Origin: an uncultured bacterium
Lineage (GTDB): Bacteria > Bacillota_I > Bacilli_A > RFN20 > CAG-826
Assembly (NCBI GenBank): GCA_949285455.1
Contig: CASDXP010000002.1
Location: 10,188 to 74,187 of the forward strand
Direction: 5' to 3'
Length of the DNA stretch: 64,000 nt
The notes beneath the pieces were generated by a model. It ran no database searches. It saw nothing but the letters and a program-made list of their open reading frames with translations, and had not been told where the DNA came from. Made by a program: the position numbers and the translations under genes. This document shows, piece by piece, positions 32,628 to 60,591 of this stretch. The stretch's first letter is position 1, and the number at the start of each line of letters is the position of its first letter.

Positions 32628-32709
32628 AAATTATTTATCCCTCCTTAATTTCTAATTAAGAATTGTAGCACATTGTAAAAACGATGTCTTTAAATATAAT
32701 AAATGTAGT

Positions 32710-33312
32710 ATGAAATATGATTTAGATTTATTAAATTTAATTAACGAACACTACGATAAACAAAAAGTAAGTTTTTCTAAATTAGATGAAAAGACTTTAA
32801 CTGGTAAGGATTCATTTAAAGGTAAGACACAAGGGTTTTTAACATTAGATTACCATCGAAGAAATAAATTGATTAAAAGTCCTTTAACCTATGCTTATAC
32901 TTTTAGAGAAATACAAAATAAAGAAGATGAAGACTTAGTGTTAACTTACGTCTTATATTCCCCGGAGCGTTATTTTAAAGAAGATGCATCTAGATATAAA
33001 GATATTGCTTTTAAGTTAAATGAATTATTAACTTTAAAAAAAGTTAAAGATAAGAAATTAAGAAATTTATATTTATGTTTAACAAGAAACGATATCGAAG
33101 CGAAATATATTGAAATATCTGAACCTTATAACTTAAATCATTTAGTCTTCGTTTCCAGTGTTTATTTAAGAAAAGATGGCGTCCATAATTTTCATTTAGG
33201 CGTTAATGTTGTGTTCGCATCTTTAGACATATCAAAAGAAATACTTTATGTTCCCTTCAAATATTTACCAGAAGATTATAAGAAGGGGTACGAAGAAGAA
33301 TATAAAAAATAG
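32710..33312 (+). CDS. Hypothetical protein; first gene of the accessory island
   Basis: ORF of 200 aa with no recognisable motif and AT-rich codon usage. Confidence 0.4.
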   Translation: MKYDLDLLNLINEHYDKQKVSFSKLDEKTLTGKDSFKGKTQGFLTLDYHRRNKLIKSPLTYAYTFREIQNKEDEDLVLTYVLYSPERYFKEDASRYKDIAFKLNELLTLKKVKDKKLRNLYLCLTRNDIEAKYIEISEPYNLNHLVFVSSVYLRKDGVHNFHLGVNVVFASLDISKEILYVPFKYLPEDYKKGYEEEYKK

Positions 33313-33313
33313 A

Positions 33314-33631
33314 TTAAATATCTAAAATTTTATCGATGATAACTTTAATAGCTTTATTCGCCTCATTATAAGCTTCCACTAGCTTCACTTTTTTAGGTGA
33401 AAGTTCGCGGTAAGATTCACTTTCAATACCGAACAAGTAATATAAAGAAATATCTAGAATTTGTGTCACATCAACAAGAGTTTGCATCGGAGGGAAAGGT
33501 CTTCCATTCAAATATCTGGAAATTTGATATTGGGGAACATCTAATTTTTTTGCTAGTTCTTCTTGCGTGACTTTCTTTTCTTTCATCACGCGTTTAATTT
33601 TTCTAAGTATTTCTATCTCTAAATTATCCAT
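33314..33631 (-). CDS. XRE-family HTH transcriptional regulator, divergent from the Hip module. Start placed at MDNLEI.
   Basis: QEELAKKLDVPQYQISRYLNG helix-turn-helix. Confidence 0.65.
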   Translation of the reverse strand: MDNLEIEILRKIKRVMKEKKVTQEELAKKLDVPQYQISRYLNGRPFPPMQTLVDVTQILDISLYYLFGIESESYRELSPKKVKLVEAYNEANKAIKVIIDKILDI

Positions 33632-33763
33632 ATTTACATTATAACAAAAAATACAAATACTGCATAAAATAAATTTAAGATAATATTTTAATTGCATAAA
33701 ATAAAAATACCTCTTATAGTGGCGGTATAAGATAATTTTTACTGCAAAATAGGGGTGTAATGG

Positions 33764-34345
33764 ATGAAAGTTAAAACTTATTTAAAGAATTATGATTATG
33801 AAAAGATTATGCGCATACTCTATTTATTGTTCGCTTATAGCTTACCTAGACAAACATATATGCCTTCCATAGCAATAGAAGTTTTAACCTGTAATCTTGA
33901 TAATATCTCTAAAACCTATAAAGAAAAAATGATCGAAGATATTAATTCATATTTAGCGAAAGTATTAAAGAATGAAAAAAGATACGATAGTTATGCTTTG
34001 GAATGGTTGGAGTTCAAAGAAAAACTTATCGCTTCATTAAGTCAAGAATCTACGAAACATTATTTTCTTTTGTGCCAAGAATCTAAGTATGATGTGGTTT
34101 TTACATCGTGCGTTAGATGTTTTCTTTTTTATCATTACGAAGGTAAGGAAAAAATATTTAATATGTTCGATGAAATAAAAGATTCTTTAATGAATAAAAC
34201 CTTACAAATTATGGAAAGAGATATAAGAGAAGAAATATATCGACCATATCCTTTTTTATCTCCTAAAGAATGTGAGGAGCGGGAGAATTTTCACCAAAAA
34301 GTTTTAACTTTGTTAATAGAAAGAAATATAAAAAAATGGAATTAA
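33764..34345 (+). CDS. Hypothetical protein, first gene of the Hip-like operon
   Basis: ORF of 193 aa with no HTH detected; 4 bp from the HipS-like gene. Confidence 0.4.
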   Translation: MKVKTYLKNYDYEKIMRILYLLFAYSLPRQTYMPSIAIEVLTCNLDNISKTYKEKMIEDINSYLAKVLKNEKRYDSYALEWLEFKEKLIASLSQESTKHYFLLCQESKYDVVFTSCVRCFLFYHYEGKEKIFNMFDEIKDSLMNKTLQIMERDIREEIYRPYPFLSPKECEERENFHQKVLTLLIERNIKKWN

Positions 34346-34349
34346 AATT

Positions 34350-34673
34350 ATGAAAAACGCGAATGTGTATTGTGATGATTTTTTAGCCGGAGTCCTTATT
34401 CAAGATGATAGTGGTTTTACTTTTGCTTATCTTGATGAATATTTAAATAGTGAAAACGCAAGAGCAATTTCTTTAACTTTACCATTAAGAAAAGAACCAT
34501 TTAGAAGTAAGCACTTATTTCCTTTCTTCGATGGCTTAATTCCTGAAGGATGGTTACTTGATTTAACGTGTTCTTACTTTAACTTAAATTGTTTAGACCG
34601 TATGTCTATCTTATTAAAAATTGGAAAAGATGTAGTGGGTAATGTTGTAGTGGAGGAAATAAAAGATGAATAA
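34350..34673 (+). CDS. HipS-like protein, a stand-alone HipA N-terminal (couple_hipA) domain
   Basis: FFDGLIPEGWLLD...IGKDVVGNVVV matches the HipA N-subdomain with its LPEG motif. 107 aa; overlaps the next gene by 8 nt. Confidence 0.8.
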   Translation: MKNANVYCDDFLAGVLIQDDSGFTFAYLDEYLNSENARAISLTLPLRKEPFRSKHLFPFFDGLIPEGWLLDLTCSYFNLNCLDRMSILLKIGKDVVGNVVVEEIKDE

Positions 34674-35547
34674 ATATTGTTCTTGTTGTGGAAAGAAACT
34701 AGAAGTTAATAATAAATCGGATTGGTGCGACCCTTGTATCTATAAATTCTTTGGAACGCATACTTTACCTGACTTTTCTTCAATTGAAGAAGATAGTAAA
34801 AACTTATCGATCGATCATTTAAGTAAAGGCTATGCGATTCAAGGTGTACAAAAAAAGATATTACATTCTAATTACGTCATTAAATTTAACAATGAACGTT
34901 TTCCTAACATTGTTCTTCTAGAACATGTTTTGATGTCGATAGCGGAATCTTCACATATCGAAGTCGTGCCTCATGCAATTATAAAGGTTAAAGATGATAG
35001 ATATATTTATATAACGAAAAGGATTGATAGAAGTGGTGAGAAAAAATATCCGATGGAAGATTTTTGCCAACTTTCAAATAAACTCACAGAATATAAATAT
35101 AATGGTTCTTATGAACTTTGTTATCGCTTACCTTTATCTTATTCTTCACAAAGAACAATTGATTCATTAAAGTTTTTTAATATCGTGTTATTTTCTTATC
35201 TAACTGGTAACACTGATATGCATTTAAAGAACTTTTCTTTAATTGATCAAAGCCAAGGCTATAAACTCGCTCCAAGCTATGATCTTGTTCCTTCCGAATT
35301 TATTATCGATCAAAAAGAAATGGCTTTATCATTAAATGGGAAAAGACAAAATCTTACAAAGAATGATTTTATTCATTTTGGTGAATATATGAATATTAAT
35401 AAAGCCCAATCTAAGTTATTAATTGAAAGAATGATTAATAACCAATCAAAGTGGTTTACGATTATAGATCATTCGCCGTTAGATGAAGAAACTAAAGACA
35501 AATACAAACAATTTCTCAAAAATAAAATTGATAAGTTTAATGACTAA
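34666..35547 (+). CDS. HipT/HipA-like Ser/Thr kinase toxin core with an N-terminal CxxC-x9-CxxC zinc ribbon
   Basis: GNTDMHLKNFSLI...LAPSYDLVPS catalytic motifs of the HipA C-terminal domain. P-loop-like IQGVQKK. N-terminus CSCCGKKLEVNNKSDWCDPC. Confidence 0.85.
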   Translation: MNKYCSCCGKKLEVNNKSDWCDPCIYKFFGTHTLPDFSSIEEDSKNLSIDHLSKGYAIQGVQKKILHSNYVIKFNNERFPNIVLLEHVLMSIAESSHIEVVPHAIIKVKDDRYIYITKRIDRSGEKKYPMEDFCQLSNKLTEYKYNGSYELCYRLPLSYSSQRTIDSLKFFNIVLFSYLTGNTDMHLKNFSLIDQSQGYKLAPSYDLVPSEFIIDQKEMALSLNGKRQNLTKNDFIHFGEYMNINKAQSKLLIERMINNQSKWFTIIDHSPLDEETKDKYKQFLKNKIDKFND

Positions 35548-35802: not shown

Positions 35803-36783
35803 TTGTATACGCCACCATTTGAGATAAATGATGAAATGATCGCACTCATTTCTAGCATTATGGAAAGACTAGGTACTTTAAAGTATTTCGATAATTTTAA
35901 GCGCATGCCTGAACTACGTAAAGTAAGTAACATTAAATCCATTTGTGCTTCTTTAGCAATCGAAAATAATCAGCTAAATATTGACGAAGTAAGAGATGTT
36001 ATTAATGGAGTGGAAGTAATAGGTAACGAAAAAGATATTATCGAAGTTAAAAATGCCATGAAAGCATATGAACTTCTAGATCAAATCGATCCCTATGAAT
36101 TATATTCATTATTAAAAATACATGAAATAATGATGCATTCCTTAGTGGAAGATGCAGGCAAAATAAGAAATAAAGAAGTTGGAGTTTATAATGAATTAGG
36201 CGATGTTATTCATATGGCTCCGCCTCACTTTATTGCTAAACAAAAATTATATGAATTATTTGAATGGCTGAATAATGCTAAGACGCACATCCTTATCAAA
36301 TCTTCCGTTTTTCATTATGAATTTGAATTTATTCATCCTTTTATGGATGGGAATGGAAGAATGGGAAGATTTTGGCAAAGTGCCTTATTAACGCATTGGA
36401 AAAAGGCTTTTTCACTTATTCCGATTGAAAGTGTTATAAAAGAACGTCAAGACGAATATTATAATTCAATTATGCTTTCGACAAAAAATGGTAATTGTAA
36501 TGCTTTTATTATCTTCATGTTAAGGTGCATTGATGTGGCGATTAAAGATTTATTAAAAGACGCTAAAAGCTATGTTGAACATTTAAGCAATCAAATTAGA
36601 GATTTACTTAGAGTAATTAAAACGTATCCTAAATCAGCGAAAGAACTTATGAAAGATTTAGGATTAAAATCGCGCTTAGCATTTAGAAATAATTATTTAA
36701 ATCCTGCGCTTGAACTTGGTTTAATTAAACTCACAAACCCGGAAGCAAAAACTAGCAAAAATCAAAAGTATTACAAGCCTTAG
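35803..36783 (+). CDS. Fic-family protein (AMPylase-type), class II with an N-terminal inhibitory helix and a C-terminal wHTH (TTG start)
   Basis: HPFMDGNGRMGR Fic motif; SLAIEN inhibitory (S/T)xxxE(G/N) motif. AGGAGG RBS before the TTG. Confidence 0.85.
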   Translation: MYTPPFEINDEMIALISSIMERLGTLKYFDNFKRMPELRKVSNIKSICASLAIENNQLNIDEVRDVINGVEVIGNEKDIIEVKNAMKAYELLDQIDPYELYSLLKIHEIMMHSLVEDAGKIRNKEVGVYNELGDVIHMAPPHFIAKQKLYELFEWLNNAKTHILIKSSVFHYEFEFIHPFMDGNGRMGRFWQSALLTHWKKAFSLIPIESVIKERQDEYYNSIMLSTKNGNCNAFIIFMLRCIDVAIKDLLKDAKSYVEHLSNQIRDLLRVIKTYPKSAKELMKDLGLKSRLAFRNNYLNPALELGLIKLTNPEAKTSKNQKYYKP

Positions 36784-36853: not shown

Positions 36854-37087
36854 ATGATGATGTCAGATGAAGAAATTTTAGTAGCCTATTTTGGTGGTAG
36901 ACCTCGTTGGAGCGGTAATAAGCTTGATCGCATTGGTGATTTAAGAGTTCATTATAGCGGAAGTCGTATCTACAAAGTAGGGGATGCAAGAATTGAATAT
37001 TCCGGTAATAAGCTTTATAAGGTCAACGGTGAAAGAGTCCAGTGGAGTGGCTCTAGTGTGTATAAGATTGGTAATAGAAGGTTATAA
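36854..37087 (+). CDS. Small protein (77 aa) made of four 15-aa tandem repeats
   Basis: Repeat R-x-x-[WY]-SG-x-x-[LIV]-YK-[VI]-[GN] occurs four times. Strong RBS AAAGGAGGA. Confidence 0.6.
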   Translation: MMMSDEEILVAYFGGRPRWSGNKLDRIGDLRVHYSGSRIYKVGDARIEYSGNKLYKVNGERVQWSGSSVYKIGNRRL

Positions 37088-37201
37088 GTTAATCTTTTAA
37101 TCATTCAATTCGTTATTTATTTTAGGAACGTTAATGCTTTCATAACTTTTCATTCGGGAGAAGATAAATTAAACTTATAGCTATAAGGAATTGAAACGAA
37201 C

Positions 37202-38047
37202 ATGATAACAAAAGGTTTCATTGAAAAGGTATGTATTGCATTTAGTATTCTAAATTATGAAGTCGAAGATAAAGTTGATTTTCATGAGTTTGAAAAAAAC
37301 GCTGATAAAAGATTATCACGTTGTAAAGAATTAGCTGACGCAAAAGAAGTGGTGGCTCAAACAAGGTTTTGTTATAAACATTGGGATAAAATCGAAAAGA
37401 TTTTTTCTAATCCAAAAACTTTAAATTATTTTCAAATGTTGGAATGCGATGATGGAGATGATATTACTCAATTAAATGATGAGGAAGCACCTGGTACTTA
37501 TTGGATCACAAACGGGCTAACGGGATCATTAAAAGATATTGCTATCGCTAGCGCGACTTTTGATGATGAAACATTCTTTGTCAACACCAAAGCTAAGCAT
37601 TATAAAATATTTGGAGATGGTGAATTTTATATTTCTAATAGTTTTTGGTCATCGGGGAAAATGAAATTATTCGATAAATATAACAATCACATATGCGACA
37701 TTGTTACGACTAAAAATTACAATATTTTCCTAAAAAATAATAAATCAAATTATTACATCCCAAAATGTTTTGTTGACACTTTAATATTTGAAAGAAAATA
37801 CGTTGAAAGTTTAAGATCAGAAGATGATGTAGACACTAGTAAAATTCTTGCTTCTATTGAATGGGATTTAATTAAATCTGGTAAATATTATTCAGTTGCA
37901 AAATTACAAATTTATGAAATGATTGATGAAGAAAATGATTTAGAATTATTCTTACTTTTCGCTGTTTCAACTTTTTTAACTTACATCAATAAAAGCGAGA
38001 ATGAGGAAGCAGCGATAGCGTTTTTAATCACAAGACATTTTCGTTAA
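37202..38047 (+). CDS. Hypothetical protein
   Basis: ORF of 281 aa. It contains WSSGKMKLFDK, weakly resembling the repeat unit of the upstream 77-aa protein. Confidence 0.4.
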   Translation: MITKGFIEKVCIAFSILNYEVEDKVDFHEFEKNADKRLSRCKELADAKEVVAQTRFCYKHWDKIEKIFSNPKTLNYFQMLECDDGDDITQLNDEEAPGTYWITNGLTGSLKDIAIASATFDDETFFVNTKAKHYKIFGDGEFYISNSFWSSGKMKLFDKYNNHICDIVTTKNYNIFLKNNKSNYYIPKCFVDTLIFERKYVESLRSEDDVDTSKILASIEWDLIKSGKYYSVAKLQIYEMIDEENDLELFLLFAVSTFLTYINKSENEEAAIAFLITRHFR

Positions 38048-38054
38048 TAACAAT

Positions 38055-39161
38055 ATGAATATAGAACTATTCGAAAAAGAACTGAAAACAGCTAAAGCAA
38101 ATAAAGAAAATGGTTATTCACCATCATTTTTAGAAGTAGTGGGTAAGAGCAGTGATGAGGAATTAATCTCAAAATATCTTTCGTATTTATTCGACAACAA
38201 CATTAATTTACTCAACGAATTTATTCGATATGCTTACGGCGATAGTTTCGCCGAATTAAAAGAAATCAATTCGATTAATAACGAATTCGCCACTAATTCT
38301 AAAAGCCGCATCGATATATTTATTCAGGCTACAGATATTAAGAACTGTAAATGCATCATAGTAATAGAAAACAAAGTGTATACAGCTGAGCACGATAAAC
38401 AATGCACAAGTTATTTTAATTACTGTGAACAATATTATCCAAAGCACAAAAGATATTATTTTTTCTTATATCCTGATTTCAATTTAAAAATTAATCAAAT
38501 AAGCACGAACGAGTTTCATAAGATAACTTACACTAACTTGTTGAAGATATTAGATGGGCTTGATGATAATTCTAAATTTGAGGAAGATTTTATAAATTTA
38601 ATTAATAATCAATTAAGGAGTAATTCTATGAGCGAGTTACGCAAAATATTCATCGAAAATTATGAAATGATTGCAAATGAATTGAAGTCTCTTAACAAAG
38701 AATTAGAAACATTAATGAATAATTTTGCTAGTTTTTATGTTGGACAAAACAACGATGTTTTCGAACCATGCGAAAAAATGGAATCGGCGCGAACGTTACG
38801 TTTTTATGAGAAGAATGGGTGGTGGCATCCTAGCGAAGATAAAGACGAACAATATTATTTTTATATCGAACTTAAACGCGAAGGTAATTTAAAGTTTTAC
38901 TGTCAGCAAACGATAAAAATGTATTCAAGAAATGAAGATTGTAAGATTAGAAGATTTGTTAAAGAAAGATGTTTTAATAGGTATAAAATGGAAATAGCGT
39001 TTAAAGATTACGCAGTCTTACAACGAGTTGGCTTTACAATTGAAGAGAATAAATTATCCAATGATTGGAAAAGAGAATTGTTTAATTGGGCGATTGAGAC
39101 TTTAAACCAATTAAAAAAGGAACAAGAAAAGTTATTTGAAGAGTTTATTAATTTCAATTAA
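38055..39161 (+). CDS. PD-(D/E)xK nuclease superfamily protein (PDDEXK_4-like)
   Basis: SRIDIFIQ...CIIVIENKVYTAEHDKQCTSY carries the D...E-x-K core and the IENK signature. Confidence 0.6.
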   Translation: MNIELFEKELKTAKANKENGYSPSFLEVVGKSSDEELISKYLSYLFDNNINLLNEFIRYAYGDSFAELKEINSINNEFATNSKSRIDIFIQATDIKNCKCIIVIENKVYTAEHDKQCTSYFNYCEQYYPKHKRYYFFLYPDFNLKINQISTNEFHKITYTNLLKILDGLDDNSKFEEDFINLINNQLRSNSMSELRKIFIENYEMIANELKSLNKELETLMNNFASFYVGQNNDVFEPCEKMESARTLRFYEKNGWWHPSEDKDEQYYFYIELKREGNLKFYCQQTIKMYSRNEDCKIRRFVKERCFNRYKMEIAFKDYAVLQRVGFTIEENKLSNDWKRELFNWAIETLNQLKKEQEKLFEEFINFN

Positions 39162-39174
39162 TGGATGTCACCTT

Positions 39175-39600
39175 ATGAAAAAATACTACCTAGCCTATGG
39201 CTCAAATTTAAATCTAAACCAAATGAAATATAGATGTCCAAGCGCATCTAAAGTAGGAACTTATTATTTAAAAGGTTATTCTTTAGAATTTAGATGTTAT
39301 TTAACTATTGTTAAAAATGAAAATGGTATTGTTCCTTTAGGAATATTTGAATTAGATGATAAAGAAGAAAAATATCTTGATCGATATGAAGGTTATCCAA
39401 TTCTTTATCGTAAAGAAACATTTAAAGTTAAATTGAATGATGATAATAAAGATATAGAGGCTTTAATCTATATTATGAATGATGATCAATATCCAAAAAT
39501 AAAACCCTCTAAGAGTTATTTAGACACTTGCTTAGAAGGTTATAAAGATTTTGGATTTGATAATAAGTATTTATTAGAAGCGTTAGAAGAATTTAAATAA
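39175..39600 (+). CDS. Gamma-glutamyl cyclotransferase / AIG2-like protein
   Basis: YLAYGSNLNLNQMKYRCPSA...GYSLEF is the GGCT-fold YGSNL signature. Confidence 0.7.
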   Translation: MKKYYLAYGSNLNLNQMKYRCPSASKVGTYYLKGYSLEFRCYLTIVKNENGIVPLGIFELDDKEEKYLDRYEGYPILYRKETFKVKLNDDNKDIEALIYIMNDDQYPKIKPSKSYLDTCLEGYKDFGFDNKYLLEALEEFK

Positions 39601-39602
39601 CA

Positions 39603-40358
39603 ATGGTTAGTAACGAAGAACAAAAAAAGGAACTTCGAATAAAATTGTTAAAGTTGATACACAAAGTAGGCCAAAACTCTAGCAATCAAATTTTTACATT
39701 GTTTATAAGCGAACCAAATAAAAATTTAAAGCCCCTTTATAATTTATTTGCCGAAGCGTTTTTGTCTTTAAAAGGTTTTGTTACATTAATAAATGATGAG
39801 TGTTGGACACAAGCTGGTGCTATTTTAAGAATTACTTTAGAACAAGTTTCGATGCTTTTTTTGCTTTCTCAAAACAAAGAACTTATTGGTGAATATCTTC
39901 GTCTACATAATGAAAAAAGAAAATATTGGATTTTATCTACTAAAGAAAAAGAAAATTATTTGAAAGAATTAAGAGAAAAAGACCCAAGATTAAATAAACA
40001 CAACATTAACAATTATTTTGATTATAGTTGGTACAAGGATGAAGAAGGAAAATATACAAAAGAAACAATTATAAAAGCAGCACTTCTTGATGAATTTATT
40101 GATGATGTCGACAATTGGTACAATAAGTTTGCTCACGGACAAATTTCTATATTTGAGTTCAATAATAATAGTTGGGAAGTAATGAAAAAAATGGGAAATA
40201 GAATGACATCATCATCTTTTAAATTGTTTGATTTCTTGATTTGCTCATTTTGGAATTTTTTTGGAAGGAAAAAAATTGAATCAGTGAACTTACTTCCTTT
40301 ATTTTGTGAGTTCAATAAAAGTTATCAATTATTCAGCAAAACTTTTAAAAGCAAATAA
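39603..40358 (+). CDS. Hypothetical protein
   Basis: ORF of 251 aa lying 2 bp after the GGCT-like gene, which places it in the same operon. Confidence 0.4.
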   Translation: MVSNEEQKKELRIKLLKLIHKVGQNSSNQIFTLFISEPNKNLKPLYNLFAEAFLSLKGFVTLINDECWTQAGAILRITLEQVSMLFLLSQNKELIGEYLRLHNEKRKYWILSTKEKENYLKELREKDPRLNKHNINNYFDYSWYKDEEGKYTKETIIKAALLDEFIDDVDNWYNKFAHGQISIFEFNNNSWEVMKKMGNRMTSSSFKLFDFLICSFWNFFGRKKIESVNLLPLFCEFNKSYQLFSKTFKSK

Positions 40359-40367
40359 ATAAGATCA

Positions 40368-40895: not shown

Positions 40896-41044
40896 ATGCG
40901 TGTATTAGACTCCTTTTTCATAGTGGATGAAATAGTAGTATAGATCTAGTGAAATTGTCAAATTAAATTTGTAGACACGACTCTAGTTTCACTAAGGATC
41001 TATTCAAAAATAGTCCGATCTGTTAAACTGTTAACGGTGATAAT

Positions 41045-49975: not shown

Positions 49976-49992
49976 AATTTTGATTCAATTTT

Positions 49993-51437: not shown

Positions 51438-51520
51438 GAATTTTCAGGATAATTTTCCTTAAAATTCTGGAATTTTCGTTATTCTTTTCCCGAAAATTCT
51501 TGATTTATTCACCGAATTAT
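51438..51520. repeat. Array of five or six GAA(A/T)(A/T)TTC half-palindromes
   Basis: GAATTTTC at 51438, AATTTTCC at 51451, AAAATTC at 51461, GAATTTTCG at 51470, GAAAATTC at 51492, CGAATTATTTT at 51513. Confidence 0.5.
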
Positions 51521-51527
51521 TTTAGTC

Positions 51528-51814: not shown

Positions 51815-51851
51815 ATTTCGCAAAAATGAAAAAATAATAGTTTTGCGAAAT
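51815..51851. promoter_or_regulatory. 37-bp element with 11-bp inverted repeats, ATTTCGCAAAA-N15-TTTTGCGAAAT, overlapping the -35 region upstream of a TATAAT at 51861
   Basis: Perfect 11-bp arms. A second copy lies at 53091-53127. Confidence 0.6.
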
Positions 51852-51883: not shown

Positions 51884-53074
51884 ATGAAATTGATAGTTAG
51901 AGAAAATTATTTAAATAAATTAATTGATGTAATCGATACACCAGATATAAAAATCATTACTGGCGTTAGAAGATCGGGGAAATCTAAACTATTAGATTGT
52001 TTCTATGATTATTTAAAATCCAATAATAAAGGCAATATTATAAGAATTAAATTGAATTTAAAGCAATTTGAAAAATTGCTGGATAAAGAAAAATTATATG
52101 AATATATAGACCAAAATTATGCCGAAGATGTTAATAATTATTTATTGATTGATGAAATTCAACTATGCAAAGACTTTGAAAGAATTATAAATAGTTTGCA
52201 TGAAGAAGAAAGATTCGACATATATTTGACAGGCTCAAACGCATTTCTTTTATCAAGCGATTTAGCGACTTTGTTTGGCGGGCGAGTTTTTGAAATAAAT
52301 ATGTTTCCATTTTCATTTAAGGAATTTTTAAAATATTTTCAATATCAAGATATTTATCAAGCTTTTGATGAATATGTCATAAAGGGAGGAATGTCTGGAA
52401 GTTATTTATATAAAAATAGCACGGATGCTTTTAAATACATAGAAGGCATTTATAAGACCACTATCGTAAAAGATATCGTACAAAAATATAAGATTGATAA
52501 CGAAGACTTGTTAATTCTAATCGCTAATTATTTAATTGATAATTTAGGAAATATTACATCGATTAGAAATTTGGCAAATTGTTTAACTTCTAACACTTAC
52601 AAGACTAACGATAAAACAGTAGGTTCTTATTTAGATTATTTATGTAAATCATTCTTGTTTTATCCTCTAAGAAGATATGACATTAAAGGTAAAAAATATT
52701 TAAAATCAGAAAGAAAATATTGTTTAGTAGATACTTCTTTTAGATATGCGACAATAGGAACGAAAAATGCAGATTATGGACACATATATGAAAACATAGT
52801 CGCCATTGAATTGTTGCGTAGGGGTTATGAACTATACGTTGGTGTGTTAAAAAATAAAGAAATAGATTATGTGGCAATTAAAAACGGAAATAAATTATAT
52901 ATTCAGGTAAGTGACGATATATCAAAAGAGGAAACATTTAAAAGAGAAATAGAACCATTATTAAGTATTAAAGATGCCTATCCTAAATTACTAATTGCTA
53001 GAACTAAACATCCTGAAAGCCAATATGAAGGGGTAGCAATAGTAGATATCGCCGATTGGCTAAATTATAAATAA
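51884..53074 (+). CDS. COG1373-type AAA+ ATPase with a degenerate C-terminal DUF4143/PD-(D/E)xK-like domain
   Basis: Walker A ITGVRRSGKSKL. The C-terminal EIDYVAI...IQVS region has QVS in place of the E-x-K seen in its paralogs. Confidence 0.7.
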   Translation: MKLIVRENYLNKLIDVIDTPDIKIITGVRRSGKSKLLDCFYDYLKSNNKGNIIRIKLNLKQFEKLLDKEKLYEYIDQNYAEDVNNYLLIDEIQLCKDFERIINSLHEEERFDIYLTGSNAFLLSSDLATLFGGRVFEINMFPFSFKEFLKYFQYQDIYQAFDEYVIKGGMSGSYLYKNSTDAFKYIEGIYKTTIVKDIVQKYKIDNEDLLILIANYLIDNLGNITSIRNLANCLTSNTYKTNDKTVGSYLDYLCKSFLFYPLRRYDIKGKKYLKSERKYCLVDTSFRYATIGTKNADYGHIYENIVAIELLRRGYELYVGVLKNKEIDYVAIKNGNKLYIQVSDDISKEETFKREIEPLLSIKDAYPKLLIARTKHPESQYEGVAIVDIADWLNYK

Positions 53075-53090: not shown

Positions 53091-53127
53091 ATTTCGCAAA
53101 AATTAAAAAATAATAATTTTGCGAAAT
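53091..53127. repeat. Second copy of the ATTTCGCAAAA-N15-TTTTGCGAAAT element, immediately downstream of the 51884 gene
   Basis: About 34 of 37 positions are identical to the copy at 51815-51851. Confidence 0.6.
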
Positions 53128-53327
53128 AACAATTATATTATTTCAAATTTGCATCTTCTAAGGTAATGAATTCCTTTTTCTGGTCACCCCCTTTCACGAT
53201 GCGACCTTTTTTGCTCGTTCCGCCTCAACTTTTACTTTAATGATTTCATCAATAAGTTCTTCTTTAGATAGAGAATCATAGTTCTTGTAATCAATAGTTT
53301 TCTTTTTGTTAACACAATAACCAAAAA

Positions 53328-53398
53328 TCCGATGTTTGTGACAAAAAATGCGAAAAAAATCCCATGTTTGTGACTAAATTTATCCCATGTTTGTAGCT
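53328..53398. repeat. Three direct repeats of ATCC(C/G)ATGTTTGT(G/A)(A/G)C
   Basis: Copies at 53328-53343, 53360-53375 and 53383-53398, in a non-coding decayed region. Confidence 0.55.
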
Positions 53399-53904: not shown

Positions 53905-54676
53905 ATGGGTATCTTTAAAACAGTATTTGAATCATTATTTGGAAGTAAAAAACAAACTTCCACACAGCCTAATCCTGATGAGCCAAGCGCTCCAGTGAAT
54001 GATCATAATCCAAGAAATAAAAAAAGCGAACTGGTTTTCTTCTAAAGAAGGTATCGAAAGTTTAAAAGAACATACGACACCTAAAGCTTACTTATTAGAA
54101 GAAAGATTAAATCAAGAATTTAAAAATAAAAATTTCGGTGGAAGAGATGTTTCGTTCGACATTTTCTTAAATGTTTATCATAAGGACGCGGTCATCCCGC
54201 AAGTGTATTTCTCTAACTTTGTTAACACAATCGAAGCTCAACCATTAAAATATGTAGGGCCAAGTGAAATGCTTACAGGCGTCCTTTCCACCTTAGCGAA
54301 AACTTATTATTTAGATGATGATGGTGAACCAGTGGAAAAGAAAAGTGCGCTTACGCCTGAAGACCTAGTGTCTTTTGAAAATAATCCAGTTCTTAAATTC
54401 GTTAAAGCTTTCACTTGTTTCCAAATTGAAGATGATGATGAAGGATCATGGACTGATAAATTTGCTTTATATTCTGATGTTTTAATTTTCTTAGGATTAT
54501 GTAGTTTTGGAGATAAGAATGTCTTAAATGAAAATGCTTGGTTGCTTGATAAAACTACTTACTTCAATAATTTAGGTACGGTGAAGAAAGAAAAAGGATT
54601 CATCAAATATTGCATCGAAAAATGCACCTATCCTGATTATTGGAAGAGCAAATTAGACGAATTAGACGAAAAATAA
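53905..54676 (+). pseudogene. Gene with the MGIFK-type N-terminus interrupted by a frameshift at an A7 tract (54019-54025). It would be intact with A6.
   Basis: Frame 1 reads MGIFKTVFESLFGSKKQ...PRNKKSELVFF* with its stop at 54043. Deleting one A joins it to the 53999-54676 ORF (..KKANWFSSKEGIESL..). The N-terminus is paralogous to the 49205 protein. Confidence 0.5.
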
Positions 54677-54705
54677 ATAGATTCTTATCATTAACTTTAT
54701 TATTT

Positions 54706-54727
54706 AGGGACCTTCGGGTCTCTTTTT
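54706..54727 (+). terminator. Rho-independent terminator with a UUCG tetraloop
   Basis: AGGGACC-TTCG-GGTCTCT followed by TTTTT. Confidence 0.65.
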
Positions 54728-54745
54728 AATTAATATAGCTTTGAG

Positions 54746-54767
54746 TTGTCCTAATTTTGTGGACAAC
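54746..54767. promoter_or_regulatory. Inverted repeat GTTGTCC-N8-GGACAAC just upstream of the second Fic gene
   Basis: Perfect 7-bp arms at 54746-54752 and 54761-54767. Confidence 0.5.
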
Positions 54768-54794
54768 TGAATGGTGTTTTGTTATCATATACAT

Positions 54795-55643
54795 ATGATA
54801 AAATATTCAATTAGATATTTTAATGGTAAACCAATAAGAGCTATTTGGGACGCTGATAAAGCGATATGGCGATATTCCGCAGTGGATTTTATTACTGTTT
54901 TAATAAATCCCCATTCATCTCGCCGTTATTGGAACAATGTAAAAGCAAGAAATCCTACACTACTAGAGTTTTGTAGCCAAGCAAAACTATATGCATCTGA
55001 TAATAAAAAATATTTAACCGATGTCATCGATGAATTTGGTGTAAGGCTTTTACTTACTATCATTCCTTCTAAATATAAAAAAGAAATTCAAGATTGGTTA
55101 AAAGGAATGCTCGATCCCATCGATGAACAAAGTAAAAGGAAAGCTTATCAGCTATATCAAACATCACTCATTTCTGAAGACGAAATCGGAAAGACTATCG
55201 CCTTACAAAAAATACATGCTTTTCTATTTGAAGGATTATATCCTTTCGCGGGACAAATTCGCTCGAAAACAATAGCAAAAGGTGGATTCGTTTTCGCAAA
55301 CGGTGACTTTCTTCCTCAAATTCTTCCCAAGATAGATAAAATGATGGAAGATAATTTTGATCACATCGTGGAAAAATATGTGGAAATGAACATCGCTCAC
55401 CCATTTTTAGAAGGAAATGGTAGAGCGACGAGAATTTGGCTTGATTTAATACTCATTAAAAATCTTAAAAAATGTATCGATTGGTCAAAGATTGATAAAG
55501 ATGAATATCTCTTAGCGATGAAAGAAAGCCCATTTAATGATTTAAGGATTAAACAATTATTAAAAGATGCCATAACTAGTGAAATAGATAATAGAGAACT
55601 ATTTATTAAAGGAATCGATACCTCATATTATTACGAACGTTAA
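54795..55643 (+). CDS. Fic-family protein of the RhuM type. Start placed at MIKYSIRYF.
   Basis: HPFLEGNGRATR Fic motif. The N-terminal IRAIWDADKAIWRYSAVDFITVL resembles the RhuM / Bro-N-like N-terminus. Confidence 0.75.
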   Translation: MIKYSIRYFNGKPIRAIWDADKAIWRYSAVDFITVLINPHSSRRYWNNVKARNPTLLEFCSQAKLYASDNKKYLTDVIDEFGVRLLLTIIPSKYKKEIQDWLKGMLDPIDEQSKRKAYQLYQTSLISEDEIGKTIALQKIHAFLFEGLYPFAGQIRSKTIAKGGFVFANGDFLPQILPKIDKMMEDNFDHIVEKYVEMNIAHPFLEGNGRATRIWLDLILIKNLKKCIDWSKIDKDEYLLAMKESPFNDLRIKQLLKDAITSEIDNRELFIKGIDTSYYYER

Positions 55644-55806: not shown

Positions 55807-55893
55807 AAAAACTCCCTTGAAAAAAGTTCCAACTCGATATAAAACTCCCTTGAAAAAAGTGCAAAAATGACTTCAAACTCCCTTGAAAAAAGT
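55807..55893. repeat. Three direct repeats of AAAACTCCCTTGAAAAAAGT with 34-bp periodicity, upstream of a COG1373 gene
   Basis: Copies at 55807-55827, 55841-55860 and 55875-55893. Confidence 0.7.
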
Positions 55894-55919
55894 TTAAAAT
55901 GTGTTTGGGAGATAAAGAA

Positions 55920-57272
55920 ATGTTTAAAAGAAAAATTTATGATCAAATCTTAAATTGGAAAAAATCAAGAAATCACAAACCATTAATTATTAGTGGTTTA
56001 AGACAAATCGGTAAGACGACGATTGTCGAAAATTTTGCCAAGGAAAATTACGAATCTGTCATCAAACTAGATTTTAGAAAAGACGCAAGTCTACATGAAA
56101 TTTTCGATGGCGATTTTGATATCAACACAATAATTTTTTCATTGTCATTAAAAAACAGCGAATATAAATTTATACCAAATAAAACTTGTTTAATTTTTGA
56201 TGAATTGCAAGATTGCCCGAATGCTAGGTCGTCTTTAAAATATTTTGCCTTAGATGGAAGATTTGATGTCATTTGTACTGGCTCTTTACTCGGCATTAAA
56301 AATTATCGTCACACCAAGAAACCTTTTAGAGGTATACCAGTGGGATTCGAAGATTATCTATTGATGAAACCGATGGATTTCGAAGAATTTCTATGGGCTA
56401 ATTCAATCGATCAATCTATTATTGATAATTTAAAGCAATGCATAGAAAAGAATACTCAAGTCAATACTTTTATACATCAAAAGATGCTTGGTTTATTCAA
56501 TAGATACATTTGTATTGGTGGGATGCCTGAAGTAGTGGATGCATACGTTAACAGTAATGATTTTAACGAAGTTAGAAAAATTCAAAGAAGAATTTTGCAA
56601 AGTTTTGAGGCTGATTTTGGCACTCATCTTAATGACCATAATGAAATAATTGTGGATGATAACGCTAAGGCAAAAATTATTGCGACCTTTAAGTCGATAC
56701 CACACCAACTAGCGAAAGATAATCAAAAATTTCAATATTCTGCTATTGTGAAAAATGCCAAAGGGAAAGAATATAAAACTGCTATTGAATGGTTAGAAGA
56801 TTATGGTCTTATTTCTCGATGCTATAACTTAACTTTGCCCGAGCTTCCATTCGATTCTTTTGTTACACAAAATTACTTCAAGATATATGCTGCCGATAGC
56901 GGATTATTTATCGCAATGTTAGATGATAATATTCCAGATCTAATCATCAATAATAAACTTAAGATTGCTAAAGGAGCAATATATGAAAATATAGTCGCAG
57001 ATGCTTTTTCTAAATTAGGAAGAAAATTATATTTCTATCATAAAAACAGCGGGCTAGAAATTGATTTCATTACTAGTTTTCATAAAGAAGTTGCGCTTGT
57101 AGAAGTAAAATCTAAAGATGGGAATGCAAAAGCAGCAAAAGAGATATTAAAAAATAAAGAAAAATATCAAGTAAATAAATTAATTAAACTTACCGCACAA
57201 AATATTGGCATTAATGAAAATATCTATACCTATCCTTATTATTTAACTTCATTCATATTTAAAGATGAATAA
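55920..57272 (+). CDS. COG1373-type AAA+ ATPase with a C-terminal DUF4143/PD-(D/E)xK-like domain. Start placed at MFKRK behind a GGGAG RBS.
   Basis: Walker A ISGLRQIGKTT; Walker B LIFDELQ; C-terminal EIDFITS...ALVEVKSK (D...E-V-K). Confidence 0.75.
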   Translation: MFKRKIYDQILNWKKSRNHKPLIISGLRQIGKTTIVENFAKENYESVIKLDFRKDASLHEIFDGDFDINTIIFSLSLKNSEYKFIPNKTCLIFDELQDCPNARSSLKYFALDGRFDVICTGSLLGIKNYRHTKKPFRGIPVGFEDYLLMKPMDFEEFLWANSIDQSIIDNLKQCIEKNTQVNTFIHQKMLGLFNRYICIGGMPEVVDAYVNSNDFNEVRKIQRRILQSFEADFGTHLNDHNEIIVDDNAKAKIIATFKSIPHQLAKDNQKFQYSAIVKNAKGKEYKTAIEWLEDYGLISRCYNLTLPELPFDSFVTQNYFKIYAADSGLFIAMLDDNIPDLIINNKLKIAKGAIYENIVADAFSKLGRKLYFYHKNSGLEIDFITSFHKEVALVEVKSKDGNAKAAKEILKNKEKYQVNKLIKLTAQNIGINENIYTYPYYLTSFIFKDE

Positions 57273-57334
57273 TTATTACTCAACTTATTATATTATAATA
57301 ATTTCATAAATCTAATGGAGGTAATGTGTTACAT

Positions 57335-58280
57335 ATGAAGAAGATTTTGCTTAGTGGTGTGGACGGTAATTTTGGTCGCGTCTGTGCAAAAGAATTACTA
57401 GATAAATATCCACATGAAGATTTAATTTTTACTGCGCCTAAAAAAAGAAGGTTTAAAAGCTTATGAAAACTTAGGTGTCACTTTAAGAGTCGCAGATTTT
57501 AATAATCCTGAAACTTTAAAAGAAGCATTTAAAGACGCAGATACGTTAATTTTAATTTCTATGCCTTTCGTAGGGCCTAGAAGAAGAAAAGTACAAAAAG
57601 ATGCGGTAGATGCCGCAAAAAGTGCTGGTGTAGACCGTATCGTTTATACTTCAATTGTCGGTGCTGGCCATAAAGATATCGACACTTACGAAGTTAATGA
57701 TCACGTTTACACCGAAGCCTATATTAAAGAAACTGGCCTTCATTATTTATTCATGAGAGATTCACAATACGCAGAAGCCATGGTCTCCAATTACATTAAT
57801 GCTTATACGAATACGAATAATGTTTTAGCTAATAATATGGGCCAAGGTAAGATGGCTTACATCTCACGTGATGATTGTGCGATATGCGCCGCGCACGCAG
57901 CGATGAGCGATTGGAAAGATCGCGTCGTCGACGTTAATGGTGCTGAACCTCTCACGATTGAAGAATATATTAATATCGCTAACGAAGTAACAGGACATAA
58001 TGTTAAATACATCGAAATTAGTGATGAAGAACTATATAAGTTCTTCGATTCTATTGGTGTCCCACACACTACCGAAGAGATGTGGGCGAAAACAGCGACT
58101 AACTTTCCTTTCTGCAGCGATGGCATGGTAACTTTTGGTAGAGCGATTAGGCTAGGTCAAATGTCAACATTTACGAATGACTTTGAAAAACTTGTCGGAA
58201 GAAAACCTATAAGTGTTAAAGAAATCTTTGAACACATGGAAGAACATCTAATTGGACAAAGAACTTCAACTGAAGATTAA
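57335..58280 (+). pseudogene. NmrA-like NAD(P)-binding (atypical SDR) gene interrupted by a frameshift at an A7 tract (57440-57446)
   Basis: MKKILLSGVDGNFGRVCAKELL Rossmann N-terminus stops at 57464-57466. With A6 it continues into the 57561-58280 frame (..APKKEGLKAYENLGV..ISMPFVGPRRRK..). Confidence 0.6.
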
Positions 58281-58388
58281 TTATTAAAAAGTTTTTATTA
58301 ATCATGGAAGAGTAACGATTCCTAAAGTCGTTACTTTTTTTGTTATTTTATTAATAACGTTTAAAATATTAGAAGAGGTGAGTAAAAC

Positions 58389-58724
58389 ATGTTTTGTAAG
58401 TATTGTGGAACAAAAATAGATACAGGAGTAAGAGTGTGTCCTCATTGTCATAATGTTTTAGACGATGGTGTAGGACCTCAAATGAATACATATAGAGGAG
58501 TGGAAGGAGCAAGCACTTTGCGTCTTTTAGCCTTCGTGTTCGCGCTTATAAATCTTATCTTAACCGCTTTTTGCATCATTCCTTTATGTTGGACTATTCC
58601 TATGACTATACACATTTATCGTGGCTATAAATATAACGATCCTATTTCCGTAGCGTTTAAGATTTGTACTTTATTATTTTTAAGTCTTATCGCGGGCATC
58701 CTTTTACTTTGTGATCAAGACTAA
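58389..58724 (+). CDS. Zinc-ribbon membrane protein
   Basis: N-terminal CKYCG...CPHCH zinc ribbon, followed by two TM helices. Confidence 0.55.
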   Translation: MFCKYCGTKIDTGVRVCPHCHNVLDDGVGPQMNTYRGVEGASTLRLLAFVFALINLILTAFCIIPLCWTIPMTIHIYRGYKYNDPISVAFKICTLLFLSLIAGILLLCDQD

Positions 58725-58897
58725 TAAAATCAGAAAACAAATTTGAAAAAAAACATATTTTATAAAGAAAAGATGAAGCATAAGAGAAACGATTTTAAAT
58801 TTTAAAAGATGGATTTGAAAAAATAATTATTGTTAAAAATAAATTAAAGCCAACCCGCAATGATAAAGGCATAGTTATCGTCGATCTTTTTGATTTT

Positions 58898-59000
58898 TTA
58901 CTAAACTCCCTTGATTTTTAGTCAAAAAATTGTCAAAACTCGCTTTAAAATTAGTCAAAAATATTACTAAACTCCCTTGATTATTAGTCAAATAACTTGT
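58898..59000. repeat. Two copies of a 37-bp direct repeat, TTACTAAACTCCCTTGATT(T/A)TTAGTCAAA..., that share the AAACTCCCTTGA core with the 55.8-kb repeats
   Basis: Copies at 58898-58934 and 58964-59000. The second abuts an extended -10 TGTTATAAT. Confidence 0.7.
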
Positions 59001-59031
59001 TATAATACTAATGTATTAAAGGGGTGATTTT

Positions 59032-60381
59032 ATGTATTTAAAACGTAAGATTGATAAAATTTTATTAGAATGGTGGAAAAAACCACATCATTCCCCCGCC
59101 TTAGTAAGTGGGGTAAGGCAATGTGGCAAAACGATGTCTATTCTTCAATTTGCTTCAAAGCATTTCGCTCATGTCATCTACATCAATTTTTGGAAGACAC
59201 CGAAGATTAAAGAATGTTTCGATACATCTTTAGACGTTGATAATATCATCAAATTATTATCATTTTTCGATGCGAGTTTTTCTTTTGAATCTTTCAAAAC
59301 AATCATCATTTTAGATGAAATTCAAGATTGTCCAAACGCACGTTTGTCGCTCAAATTTTTCAAAGAAGATGGTCGATTTGAAGTCATCGCTAGCGGATCA
59401 TATATTGGACTTAACATTTTAGAAAATGAAGTTCCTGTTCCTATGCCTAATGGTGCGGAAGATATCATTTATATGAAGACGATGGATTTTGAAGAATTCT
59501 TGTGGGCGAATGGTTACGATGGGGAAACTATTTCTCATCTAGAAAATTATTTTGAAAAGAAAGAAACTGTTCCATCTTCCATCCATGAGAAAATGAAACA
59601 GTTATTCAAAGAATACATGTGCGTTGGGGGCTATCCAGAAGTTGTTTTAGATTATGTTTCTTCACATAATTTTTCATCCGCGTTCAATAAAATTAATAGC
59701 CTTATCTTTGATATTAAAGGTGACCCAATTAAAAGGATGAACGAAGAAGGAAAAAGTTTATATAATCCAAGCGAAATTATGCGCATTCAAAATGCTTTCG
59801 ATTTGATTGTTTCATCTTCCTTTAAAGATAATCAAAGATTCGTCATCTCTAAAATTAGTCATGGGAATGGATTAGTTAATAAAGACGCAGTTAATTATTT
59901 AGTAAACGCAAATGTAGCTTTTAAAGTTCATAATGTAGCGAATGTAAGCTTACCTTTAATCGTCTCCAAAATAGAAAGTGATTTCAGATTATATTACAGC
60001 GATATCTCTATTTTTATGGCTATGTGTGGCTTCGACACCATTAAGGCTTTAATGCAAGATAGCTTAGGAATGAATAAAGGTCAAATTTATGAAGCCGCTT
60101 TAGCGGACTCTTTGTATAAGGCTTCTATTCCTACTTATTATTTTCGTAAAAGTAGTGGTCTAGAAATAGATTTTGTCATATCTTATTTAGGATATTCAAC
60201 TCTAATCGAGGCTAAAGCGAAAAAAGGTAACGCTAAGTCTTCAAAAACTATCATGAATAATAAGGAACATTATGGAGTAACTAAATTAATTAAATTCGGT
60301 GATTACAATATCGCGCAAGAAAATGATGTTCTTACCTTGCCTTACTATTTAGCGTTCCTACTCAATAGAACAAAAGTCTAA
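59032..60381 (+). CDS. COG1373-type AAA+ ATPase with a C-terminal DUF4143/PD-(D/E)xK-like domain
   Basis: Walker A VSGVRQCGKTM; Walker B IILDEIQ; C-terminal EIDFVIS...TLIEAKAK. Confidence 0.75.
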   Translation: MYLKRKIDKILLEWWKKPHHSPALVSGVRQCGKTMSILQFASKHFAHVIYINFWKTPKIKECFDTSLDVDNIIKLLSFFDASFSFESFKTIIILDEIQDCPNARLSLKFFKEDGRFEVIASGSYIGLNILENEVPVPMPNGAEDIIYMKTMDFEEFLWANGYDGETISHLENYFEKKETVPSSIHEKMKQLFKEYMCVGGYPEVVLDYVSSHNFSSAFNKINSLIFDIKGDPIKRMNEEGKSLYNPSEIMRIQNAFDLIVSSSFKDNQRFVISKISHGNGLVNKDAVNYLVNANVAFKVHNVANVSLPLIVSKIESDFRLYYSDISIFMAMCGFDTIKALMQDSLGMNKGQIYEAALADSLYKASIPTYYFRKSSGLEIDFVISYLGYSTLIEAKAKKGNAKSSKTIMNNKEHYGVTKLIKFGDYNIAQENDVLTLPYYLAFLLNRTKV

Positions 60382-60591
60382 TGAAATCTAAAATTAAATT
60401 AGATCAAAAAGCATTGCTTCACCAAATTATGGAATCATCATTTTTACTTTGCCAAGGTTTAGAGAATTCTTGCTTTTGAAGTAAAGCGAAATTAAATAAT
60501 CTTGCTTTGATTTTATTTAAATGCTAGTATTACTAGGCAACTTACTTTAAATCATCATTATTGATTTAAGGCGGAAGGAGTTAAAAGGATT

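Follow-up and report, generated by a model that had tools for sequence, protein, structure and literature searches.

A probable integrase-free defence hotspot between tldD and rpmE-metG in uncultured low-GC Bacilli

We analysed a 64,000-nucleotide (nt) stretch of DNA from an uncultured bacterium of the CAG-826 lineage of the Bacilli (contig CASDXP010000002.1, positions 10,188 to 74,187; hereafter the window, whose first letter is position 1). A first-pass annotation of the letters alone had placed a 28-kb AT-rich accessory island between tldD and rpmE. Our results indicate that this island is most probably an integrase-free core defence hotspot in the chromosome of uncultured low-GC Bacilli, bounded by tldD with an adjoining gene for a 200-amino-acid (aa) protein on one side and by rpmE-metG on the other. 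It is a patchwork of independent cassettes and decaying remnants, not one inserted element. The cassettes are a HipS/HipT pair, a SoFic-like Fic protein, a PD-(D/E)xK block, a restriction-modification (R-M) pair, a helix-turn-helix (HTH)-AIPR-GHKL module, a uracil-DNA glycosylase (UDG)-like trio, three COG1373 genes and a Bro-N/Fic protein. Most modules match known or candidate defence families, and Pfam and PADLOC bear out nearly all gene calls of the first-pass annotation. The cluster of defence matches comprises SoFic, REase_II with MTase_II, PDC-S01, PDC-S04 and PDC-S26 in PADLOC, and AIPR and HipA in Pfam; the third COG1373 gene was counted under PDC-S01 by way of its Pfam AAA_14 and DUF4143 domains. 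Judged from their sequences, the cassettes would most likely act independently of each other, as anti-phage or addiction modules.

A variable site between tldD and rpmE

Cargo was compared among related contigs, labelled L001-L023 (W denotes the window), by an exact look-up of the TldD protein, which returned contigs of several samples, followed by a tblastn presence/absence table; an exact look-up of the methionyl-tRNA synthetase (MetRS) of the window returned no identical record. Contigs L003-L006 encode a TldD protein 100% identical to that of the window, yet the cargo following tldD differs. L005 is window-like up to position 40975, beyond which come an HTH gene, a 320-aa open reading frame (ORF) and a 1337-aa ResIII/Eco57I protein. 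The ~9 kb of cargo in L003 consist of HipB-HipS-HipT, Fic, a 77-aa ORF, a full GmrSD gene, a fragment of an ADP-ribosylglycohydrolase (ARH) gene, a 253-aa ORF and Bro-N/Fic, and the ~5 kb in L004 of the 200-aa ORF, Fic, a 76-aa ORF, a GmrSD fragment and one COG1373 gene. L009, with a TldD of ~90% identity, carries ~4.4 kb.

The first-pass annotation had suggested aligning the tldD-rpmE junction with related genomes, and this comparison was decisive. In L010 and L011, which belong to a sister lineage (TldD ~90% identity), tldD and rpmE are only ~2.4 kb apart. This near-empty site accommodates a counterpart of the 200-aa ORF, a pair of very small ORFs, a Zn-ribbon gene and the stub that deletion left of the rpmE-proximal COG1373 gene. 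With the near-empty state included, at least five different cargos occur between tldD/200-aa and rpmE-metG, and the cargo of relatives at this site also includes GmrSD and Eco57I-type genes. An identical gene content and order of uniform composition throughout the close relatives was not found: the cargos differ and the composition is not uniform. In the more distant L013 (TldD 58% identity), four unrelated genes separate tldD from rpmE, and a single gene lies between rpmE and metG. As this contig retains the order tldD...rpmE...metG, the neighbourhood is ancestral and has long been gathering variable genes. Differing cargo beside an identical TldD, the near-empty sister site and the arrangement in L013 together identify an old, strain-variable hotspot. 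The breakpoints of the window against its relatives lie at 33311-33361, 34350, 35529, 37079-37213, 40975, 53638, 55827, 58359-58762 and 60144-60394. The UDG-like and HTH-AIPR-GHKL modules were found at 50-90% identity in other genomic contexts.

The edges of the island, as first drawn at tldD and rpmE, were essentially right but need refinement. The 200-aa ORF (32710-33312, + strand) is a lineage-core boundary gene, standing beside tldD in all three lineages and matched by tblastn at 92-98% identity in L002-L011; all variants diverge directly after its stop codon. It had no match in Pfam, PADLOC, NCBIfam or PHROGs and was not found in JGI metagenome contigs. At the other edge, the Zn-ribbon membrane protein (58389-58724, +; Zn_Ribbon_1, 4e-6) is 87% identical in L010 and L011, and the rpmE-proximal COG1373 gene (59032-60381, +; PADLOC PDC-S01, 1e-109), complete in L004, has suffered an internal deletion in L010/L011 and survives in L003 as a 3' stub. 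Both genes are old residents of the site, since the sister lineage still carries the first and retains a remnant of the second left by deletion.

The first-pass annotation had described conserved housekeeping genes on both sides. On the left this holds, and the region is that of the replication origin: mnmE, yidC, dnaA (8273-9628), dnaN, recF, gyrB, gyrA and serS fill the left half of the window, and the cumulative GC skew has its minimum at ~8-9 kb. Next to the island stand pmbA (29911-31233, -) and tldD (31230-32627, -), whose Pfam PmbA_TldD domains were seen on identical or near-identical products and on an identical product, respectively. On the right, however, the core is limited to rpmE (60592-60795, +; 99% identity to a PF01197 product) and metG (60844-62421, +; mosaic between lineages), and the next gene is strain-variable. 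From tldD to rpmE the island measures 27,964 bases, at ~25-52 kb from dnaA, and 24 of its 28 genes lie on the + strand, directed away from the origin.

The lower GC content attributed to the island was borne out. It is 30.2%, against 35.5% in the left core and 33.1% at the right end (island versus core in 2-kb windows, Mann-Whitney p = 3e-5). Per-gene medians follow the same pattern, both for GC (0.304 in the island versus 0.356 in the core, p = 1e-5) and for GC at third codon positions (GC3; 0.239 versus 0.304, p = 1e-4). Coding density is 84% in the island and 93% in the core. A promoter/terminator consensus scan yielded fewer sites than shuffled sequences and was of no help in defining operons.

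Low GC and frequent pseudogenes would also be expected of a single integrative element (prophage, integrative and conjugative or mobilisable element, or integrase-type island) that had inserted beside rpmE or tldD and since decayed, losing its integrase and attachment sites. A 193-aa ORF that matches a PHROG of no known function and a frameshifted ORF remnant at 53130-53330 may be read in the same way. We consider this explanation very unlikely. As the first-pass annotation had noted, the hallmarks of such elements are missing: no integrase, transposase, relaxase or phage structural domain was detected by Pfam in the main ORFs of the window or in eight related loci with alternative versions of the site, and the window contains no tRNA or tmRNA. 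The only Rfam match at gathering level in the whole window is the signal recognition particle (SRP) RNA at 19343-19440, with no family in the island. A search for direct or inverted repeats from edge to edge found none above chance, with a longest exact match of 10 nt against a shuffle maximum of 13-16. Megablast of 33400-58390 gave no match among 72,556 plasmids other than a single 73-nt Fic match, and none at all among 50,697 phage records. The content is moreover mosaic, with many independent breakpoints, and not one unit that is present or absent. An integron-like cassette array, considered for the shared gene orientation and inter-cassette repeats, was rejected, there being no integrase, no common attC-like element and breakpoints in unrelated sequences.

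The source is an assembly from an uncultured organism, and contigs L001, L002 and L006 break inside the island, as they might if foreign contigs had been joined into a scaffold by faulty assembly or binning. Independent contigs from another sample nevertheless reproduce the window. L007 is 99.4% identical across tldD-pmbA and L008 99.99% identical over 39214-47678, L018 has the 188-aa and 256-aa genes of the UDG-like trio with an identical promoter including its run of ten G, and the junctions with both flanks are common to L003-L005, L009 and L010. An artefact of this kind is hardly credible as the origin of the island.

Probable exchange through the flanks, and deletion at microhomologies

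The core genes beside the island do not share one history. The distal core (21.2-28.2 kb) sorts into three groups that are ~84% identical to one another: the window; L003, L004, L005, L009 and L001; and L010 with L002. The proximal 5 kb (mscL-pmbA-tldD-200 aa) regroup, with the window joining L003, L004 and L005 at 98-99% identity, L009 joining L001 and L002 at 96-98%, and L010 standing alone. The tract exchanged, at ~28.3-33.3 kb, includes tldD; along it the sliding identity of the window to L003-L005 is 98-99%, versus ~85% further left. Switch points lie at ~28.3-28.5 kb for W versus L003, at ~29.4-29.6 kb for L010 versus L002 and at ~29.8-30.0 kb for L009 versus L002. They are unlike between pairs, which indicates several independent events of homologous recombination through the flanks. 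On the right, W and L004 are 96-99% identical over ~60.7-61.9 kb (the 3' end of rpmE and the first two thirds of metG) and 89% identical beyond, and in this metG tract L004 is also unlike L009, a member of its own group.

Losses took the form of deletions at microhomologies of 6-15 nt. In L004 the Hip module was lost between TGATAACTTTAATAG and TGATAAGTTTAATGA, in L010 the COG1373 gene was lost between GCAAAACGATGT and GAAAATGATGT, and L003 joins position 55827 to 60144 at AAAAGT. L004 retains ~40 bp of the 3' end of the segment that replaces hipB in the window; with this piece of the window-type HTH gene left behind, L004 derives from a window-like arrangement.

Such junctions, and the gene stubs visible in L004, L010 and L003, raise the question of whether loss alone could account for the variants, each having been carved by deletion from a large ancestral island with no horizontal input. 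The block Hip-Fic-77 aa, common to several lineages at 80-97% identity, fits that account. Against it stand the incongruent phylogeny of the flanks, with 96-99% identical tracts between lineages that are otherwise ~84% identical; the non-homologous cassettes found at the same position (GmrSD versus the 281-aa/PDDEXK block, and hipB versus a 127-aa HTH gene with the 193-aa ORF); and the occurrence of window cassettes at 85-91% DNA identity in other contexts. Loss without gain is therefore unlikely.

How the island came to be inserted had been left unclear by the first-pass annotation. An integrase route indeed found no support, but the mechanism can be narrowed to homologous recombination through the flanks combined with microhomology deletions. 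Incoming DNA would recombine homologously by way of the flanks (mscL-pmbA-tldD on the left, rpmE-metG on the right) or of shared cassettes, giving rise to new combinations. Crossovers in the core genes beside the island would, in the simplest reading, carry island segments along. Cassettes would then be removed or shortened by deletion between 6-15 nt microhomologies. Transformation, transduction and conjugation are all possible routes for the entry of DNA.

Several points weigh against the interpretation of the site as a defence hotspot fed by recombination. All comparison sequences are metagenome contigs or metagenome-assembled genomes. The lineages were defined from the ~7 kb of distal core, from which it is not decidable which segment is the recombinant one. 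Chimeric assembly of co-occurring relatives is a residual possibility, although the same patterns were met again in separate assemblies and samples. As the Hip-Fic-77 aa part is shared and maybe largely vertical, a portion of the variation would be differential loss rather than gain. The low GC content is what would be expected of any weakly expressed accessory gene and is no proof of foreign origin. Several of the PADLOC matches are to candidate families only (PDC-*), and about ten island ORFs are without any annotation: searches of nine or ten of them with relaxed Pfam thresholds (E<=5), NCBIfam and PHROGs gave essentially nothing.

Variability extends a little beyond the island. The gene after metG (62455-63849, -) encodes a COG2865-like protein with SLFN AlbA_2 and HATPase_c_4 domains; L009 has it, but in L004 and L010 it is missing and metG is followed by CofD or DUF7674 genes. 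The position after metG is thus a second, small variable spot. Another insertion point is the intergenic region between mscL and a 383-aa gene (~28974-29333), which in the sister lineage holds a 467-aa ATPase_2/AAA_14/DUF234 gene (L010 13349-14752, L011 and L012). Two recombination switch points lie near it, at ~29.4-29.6 kb in mscL and at ~28.3-28.5 kb in the 383-aa gene. MscL itself (29334-29906, -) ends in a C-terminal Pro-Ala repeat, PAPAPAPAPDP, and its product is 189, 190 or 194 aa long among relatives (L004 12721-13305; L009 12722-13291), a difference that may come from variation in repeat length.

Cassettes and remnants of the island

The first cassette after the 200-aa ORF is the Hip module. 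The first-pass annotation had seen a split HipA here. HipA-type genes are indeed present, but the gene is not broken: a HipS-like protein (34350-34673, +; Couple_hipA, 1.9e-23) is followed by a HipT-like kinase (34666-35547, +; HipA_C, 4.2e-41), which is a natural HipS/HipT arrangement. Among solved structures the best matches are Legionella HipT (1e-34) and HipS (2e-12; PDB 7vkb/8ezr), with the E. coli O127 HipBST chains next. As in the HipBST systems of E. coli O127 (PDB 7ab3-5) and Legionella, a separate HipS of ~105 aa precedes a HipT kinase of ~300 aa, and in the relatives of the window an HTH hipB gene precedes both. In the window, unlike in these systems, the place of hipB is occupied by the unrelated segment 33314-34345, comprising an opposite-strand Cro/C1-type HTH gene (33314-33697, -; HTH_3, 8.8e-11) and the 193-aa ORF (33764-34345, +), whose sole match was phrog_11947 (6.6e-7). 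The segment is absent from L002, L003, L005, L006 and L009, which have a 71-aa HTH protein (hipB) instead. HipT of the window also differs in having lost 16 residues in frame beside the Gly-rich loop, directly after GVQKK, relative to L005, L002 and L009, and its N-terminus has diverged; the C-terminal two thirds are ~99% identical to L005, and the C-terminal catalytic part is conserved. With hipB missing and the deletion in HipT, the module of the window is possibly a disarmed or inactive copy.

Both Fic proteins of the first-pass annotation were recovered. They keep the HxFx(D/E)GNGRxxR motif and are 28% identical to each other. The first is a Fic AMPylase-type protein with a HPFMDGNGRMGR motif (35803-36783, +; Fic, 4.5e-19; Fic-like_C, 1.7e-18; PADLOC SoFic, 3.9e-42). 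A 77-aa repeat protein (36854-37087, +) comes after this Fic gene in every variant that has it (L002-L006) and may be its partner. The 77-aa protein consists of about five SG-x-x-[IL]YK[VI]G-like repeats and is 96-100% conserved, and the GC content of its gene, 38.5%, is above that of the neighbours. The second Fic protein is the Bro-N/Fic fusion (54771-55643; Fic, 2e-10; Bro-N, 1.4e-4; PADLOC PDC-S04, 1.9e-111), which forms a unit at 53999-55643 (+) with a 225-aa ORF. The 225-aa ORF always precedes Bro-N/Fic, and the pair is also adjacent in L003 and L009.

The block at 37202-40895 is common to L005 only, at 95-100% protein identity, and extends from a 281-aa ORF to a 175-aa ORF (-). Between them Pfam recognised a PDDEXK_4 nuclease-like protein (38055-39161), a GGACT/AIG2 protein (39136-39600) and a DUF5677 protein (39603-40358). 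The first of these, found also by PADLOC as PDC-S26 (6e-13), bears out the presence of PD-(D/E)xK proteins in the island.

The type II R-M pair was likewise found as described. Its endonuclease (42013-43233, +; MTaX1, 1e-19) matched PADLOC REase_II at 8e-48 with full-length coverage, and the C5-cytosine methyltransferase (Dcm; 43273-44457, +) matched Pfam DNA_methylase PF00145 at 2e-82 and PADLOC MTase_II at 4e-98. Next to it, the first-pass annotation had described a pair of GHKL ATPases. One 752-aa protein (44474-46732, -) is a GHKL+transducer ATPase; its partner, however, is an AIPR protein (46684-47889, -; AIPR, 4.9e-30), accompanied by a divergent HTH regulator (ORF 47882-48307, +; HTH_3, 6e-14), which is called as 82 aa in L018 (~48059-48307). 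For both the ATPase and the HTH gene, the start of the longest ORF probably lies too far upstream. Homologues of the ATPase align from residue ~21, and its translation would accordingly begin at 46672, 11 nt beyond the AIPR stop codon.

Pfam gave no direct match for the 752-aa protein, and phmmer against PDB sequences found nothing meaningful. Its assignment derives from its family and from structure prediction. Many of its 527 homologues carry PF13589, and the positions of the invariant residues N91, D94, D166, G168, G170 and G198-G204 agree with the N, G1 and G2 boxes of GHKL ATPases. An AlphaFold2 (AF2) model with a mean confidence score (pLDDT) of 79 matches Hsp90, MORC3/4, SMCHD1 and ParE over ~400-490 columns (E 6e-10), and the matches span the ATPase and transducer domains. 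The family was not found in IMG/VR viral contigs.

The HTH-AIPR-GHKL trio also occurs in L015, L016 and L017, at ~50% identity and in defence-type contexts, and PADLOC 2.0 has no model for it. In L017 (1993-8211) the trio stands beside an MTaX1+Dcm pair, as at 42013-48307 of the window, but in the opposite relative orientation. AIPR was described computationally in paraMORC and R-M neighbourhoods in 2008 (Iyer et al. 2008, PMC2292703), and an HEPN RNase domain was predicted in it later (Makarova et al. 2012, PMC3506569). Like the paraMORC/MORC GHKL systems with AIPR (AbiU1-like), the module in the window has a gene for a GHKL+S5/transducer ATPase adjoining AIPR, beside a cytosine methylase/endonuclease pair. 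Unlike them, it has no linked superfamily-II helicase, and the divergent HTH gene is a constant third member. The proximity of the two in the window and in L017 hints that the R-M pair and the AIPR-GHKL module may be linked in function.

Three intact COG1373 genes lie in the right part of the island. The first encodes a 396-aa ATPase (51884-53074, +; AAA_14, 9e-32; DUF4143, 4e-17; PADLOC PDC-S01, 1e-141), the second spans 55899-57272 (+; AAA_14, 7.5e-21; DUF4143, 1e-27), and the third is the gene beside rpmE. They are old paralogues, 38% and 26% identical, and a recent tandem duplication was rejected on this ground. The families of upstream repeats reported by the first-pass annotation proved to be real and accompany these genes. 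A 37-nt palindrome, ATTTCGCAAAA-N15-TTTTGCGAAAT, brackets the 396-aa gene in two copies (51815-51851 and 53091-53127; 0 expected by chance) and might mark the edge of a cassette or act as a terminator or operator. Tandem arrays of three 33-nt units with the core AAACTCCCTTGA lie at 55808-55899 and 58903-59000, each directly preceding one of two COG1373 paralogues with a mutual identity of only 38%; at 0 mismatches the motif is absent from the rest of the window. The arrays may represent a shared operator or promoter element. Neither the palindrome nor the AAACTCCCTTGA motif is a general repeat in the related loci, where only the orthologous positions in L003 and L004 match.

The remnants had mostly been recognised as pseudogenes, and partial profile matches together with frame checks agree. 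A GIY-YIG nuclease remnant (41209-41949, +) matches profile positions 12-34 of 78 only, and its GIY motif precedes any possible start codon. An ARH fragment (50942-51184, +; partial Pfam match) and the 5' fragment of a COG1373 gene (51528-51764, +; partial AAA_14 match) contain frameshifts; sequence matching 51396-51749 lies within an intact 467-aa AAA_14/DUF4143 gene in L023 (7642-8004). An NmrA-like gene (57561-58280, +) lacks the N-terminal Rossmann part and covers profile positions 86-253 of 298 only. Partial profile coverage along with absent starts or frameshifts makes ARH, GIY-YIG, NmrA and this fourth AAA_14 gene pseudogenes. The frameshifted ORF at 53130-53330 (-), with the reading ...DYKNYDSLSKEELIDEIIKVKVEAERAKK / GRIVKGGDQKKEFITLEDANLK before its stop, is located within a non-coding gap of 630 bp; as tblastn against plasmids gave no match, it was not called a transposase.

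A poly-G promoter and the meaning of the site

The UDG-like trio (48575-50850, +) encodes a 188-aa UDG-superfamily-like protein, a 256-aa ORF and a 285-aa multi-pass membrane protein. Upstream, a promoter-like sequence reads TTGTCA (48599), nine nucleotides, ten G (G10, 48614-48623) and TATAAT (48629), giving a spacer of 19 nt; the ATG at 48635 comes five bases past the -10 hexamer. This G10 is the sole long homopolymer in the window, and the homopolymer tracts listed by the first-pass annotation come down to it and one A8. In L023 the tract of this module is G11 and in L019-L022 it is G12, with identical adjoining promoter bases. Homology of these five contigs to the window begins only ~12-25 nt upstream of the -35 hexamer.

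Conserved homopolymers that vary in length between the -35 and -10 elements are the classic mark of phase variation, as in surface genes of Neisseria and Mycoplasma. The G tract of the window resembles them in lying exactly between -35-like and -10-like hexamers and in its length of 10, 11 or 12 between lineages. It departs from them in spacers of 19-21 nt, longer than the 16-18 nt optimum, and in its cargo, a UDG-like defence-island module in place of a surface antigen. No variation in the length of the G tract was seen within samples. The tract is a candidate phase-variable promoter.

The 188-aa protein has no direct Pfam match. It matches TIGR04274 at 1.2e-8 with 35 bits, below the cutoff of 80; PF03167 was found in 4/40 of its HMMER relatives; and its family profile matches PDB entry 2l3f at 9e-10, while a small-family profile had no match in the PDB. 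The AF2 model, built on a 4-sequence alignment, was unusable (pLDDT 39). From these profile similarities, the protein probably belongs to the UDG superfamily.

Two broader interpretations go beyond the hotspot itself, and we regard the two, taken jointly, as doubtful. In the first, the poly-G module would be an undescribed phase-variable anti-phage system acting on modified or damaged DNA, with the G tract switching it ON in a minority of cells. In the second, the tldD/rpmE hotspot would be a conduit for whole defence repertoires, which would be exchanged, together with adjacent core genes, between species-level lineages (~84% identity) of uncultured gut Bacilli without mobile-element machinery.

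The features of a core defence hotspot that are accessible to sequence analysis were found at this locus and those of an integrase island were not, and the locus therefore joins a known kind. Its closest counterparts are cDHS1 and cDHS2 of P. aeruginosa, which range from 1 to 224 kb, belong to no mobile-element class and are proposed to be transferred by homologous recombination in their conserved flanks (Johnson et al. 2023, PMC10250203). Shared features are a fixed site between core genes, a variable size (here ~2.4-28 kb), diverse defence systems and lower GC. The phylum, the flanking genes (tldD and rpmE-metG near oriC) and the set of cassettes are different, and no flanking non-coding RNA is found here. 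For the recombination route, only proposed there, the mosaic flanks provide direct, metagenome-based evidence. Most hotspots of E. coli are occupied by recognisable mobile elements, such as prophages, integrative elements and satellites; the tldD/rpmE site, unlike them, bears no mobile-element hallmark. It does share the clustering and the turnover of defence systems: in the E. coli pan-genome such systems gather in a restricted set of chromosomal positions and turn over from one strain to another (Hochhauser et al. 2023, PMC10121019).

The locus is thus of a well-known kind and leaves current concepts unchanged. What it adds is a documented defence hotspot in a lineage of uncultured low-GC Bacilli, and sequence-level support for homologous recombination through the flanks with erosion at microhomologies, a route that studies of hotspots mostly leave at the stage of a proposal. 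To our knowledge, little is known of the defence genomics of this lineage. Several constant, unannotated partners are of interest: the 77-aa protein downstream of the first Fic gene, the 225-aa protein upstream of Bro-N/Fic, and the HTH-AIPR-GHKL and UDG-like trios, the latter with its poly-G promoter. The flanks tldD-(200 aa)...rpmE-metG can serve as anchors for harvesting further cassettes from metagenomes.

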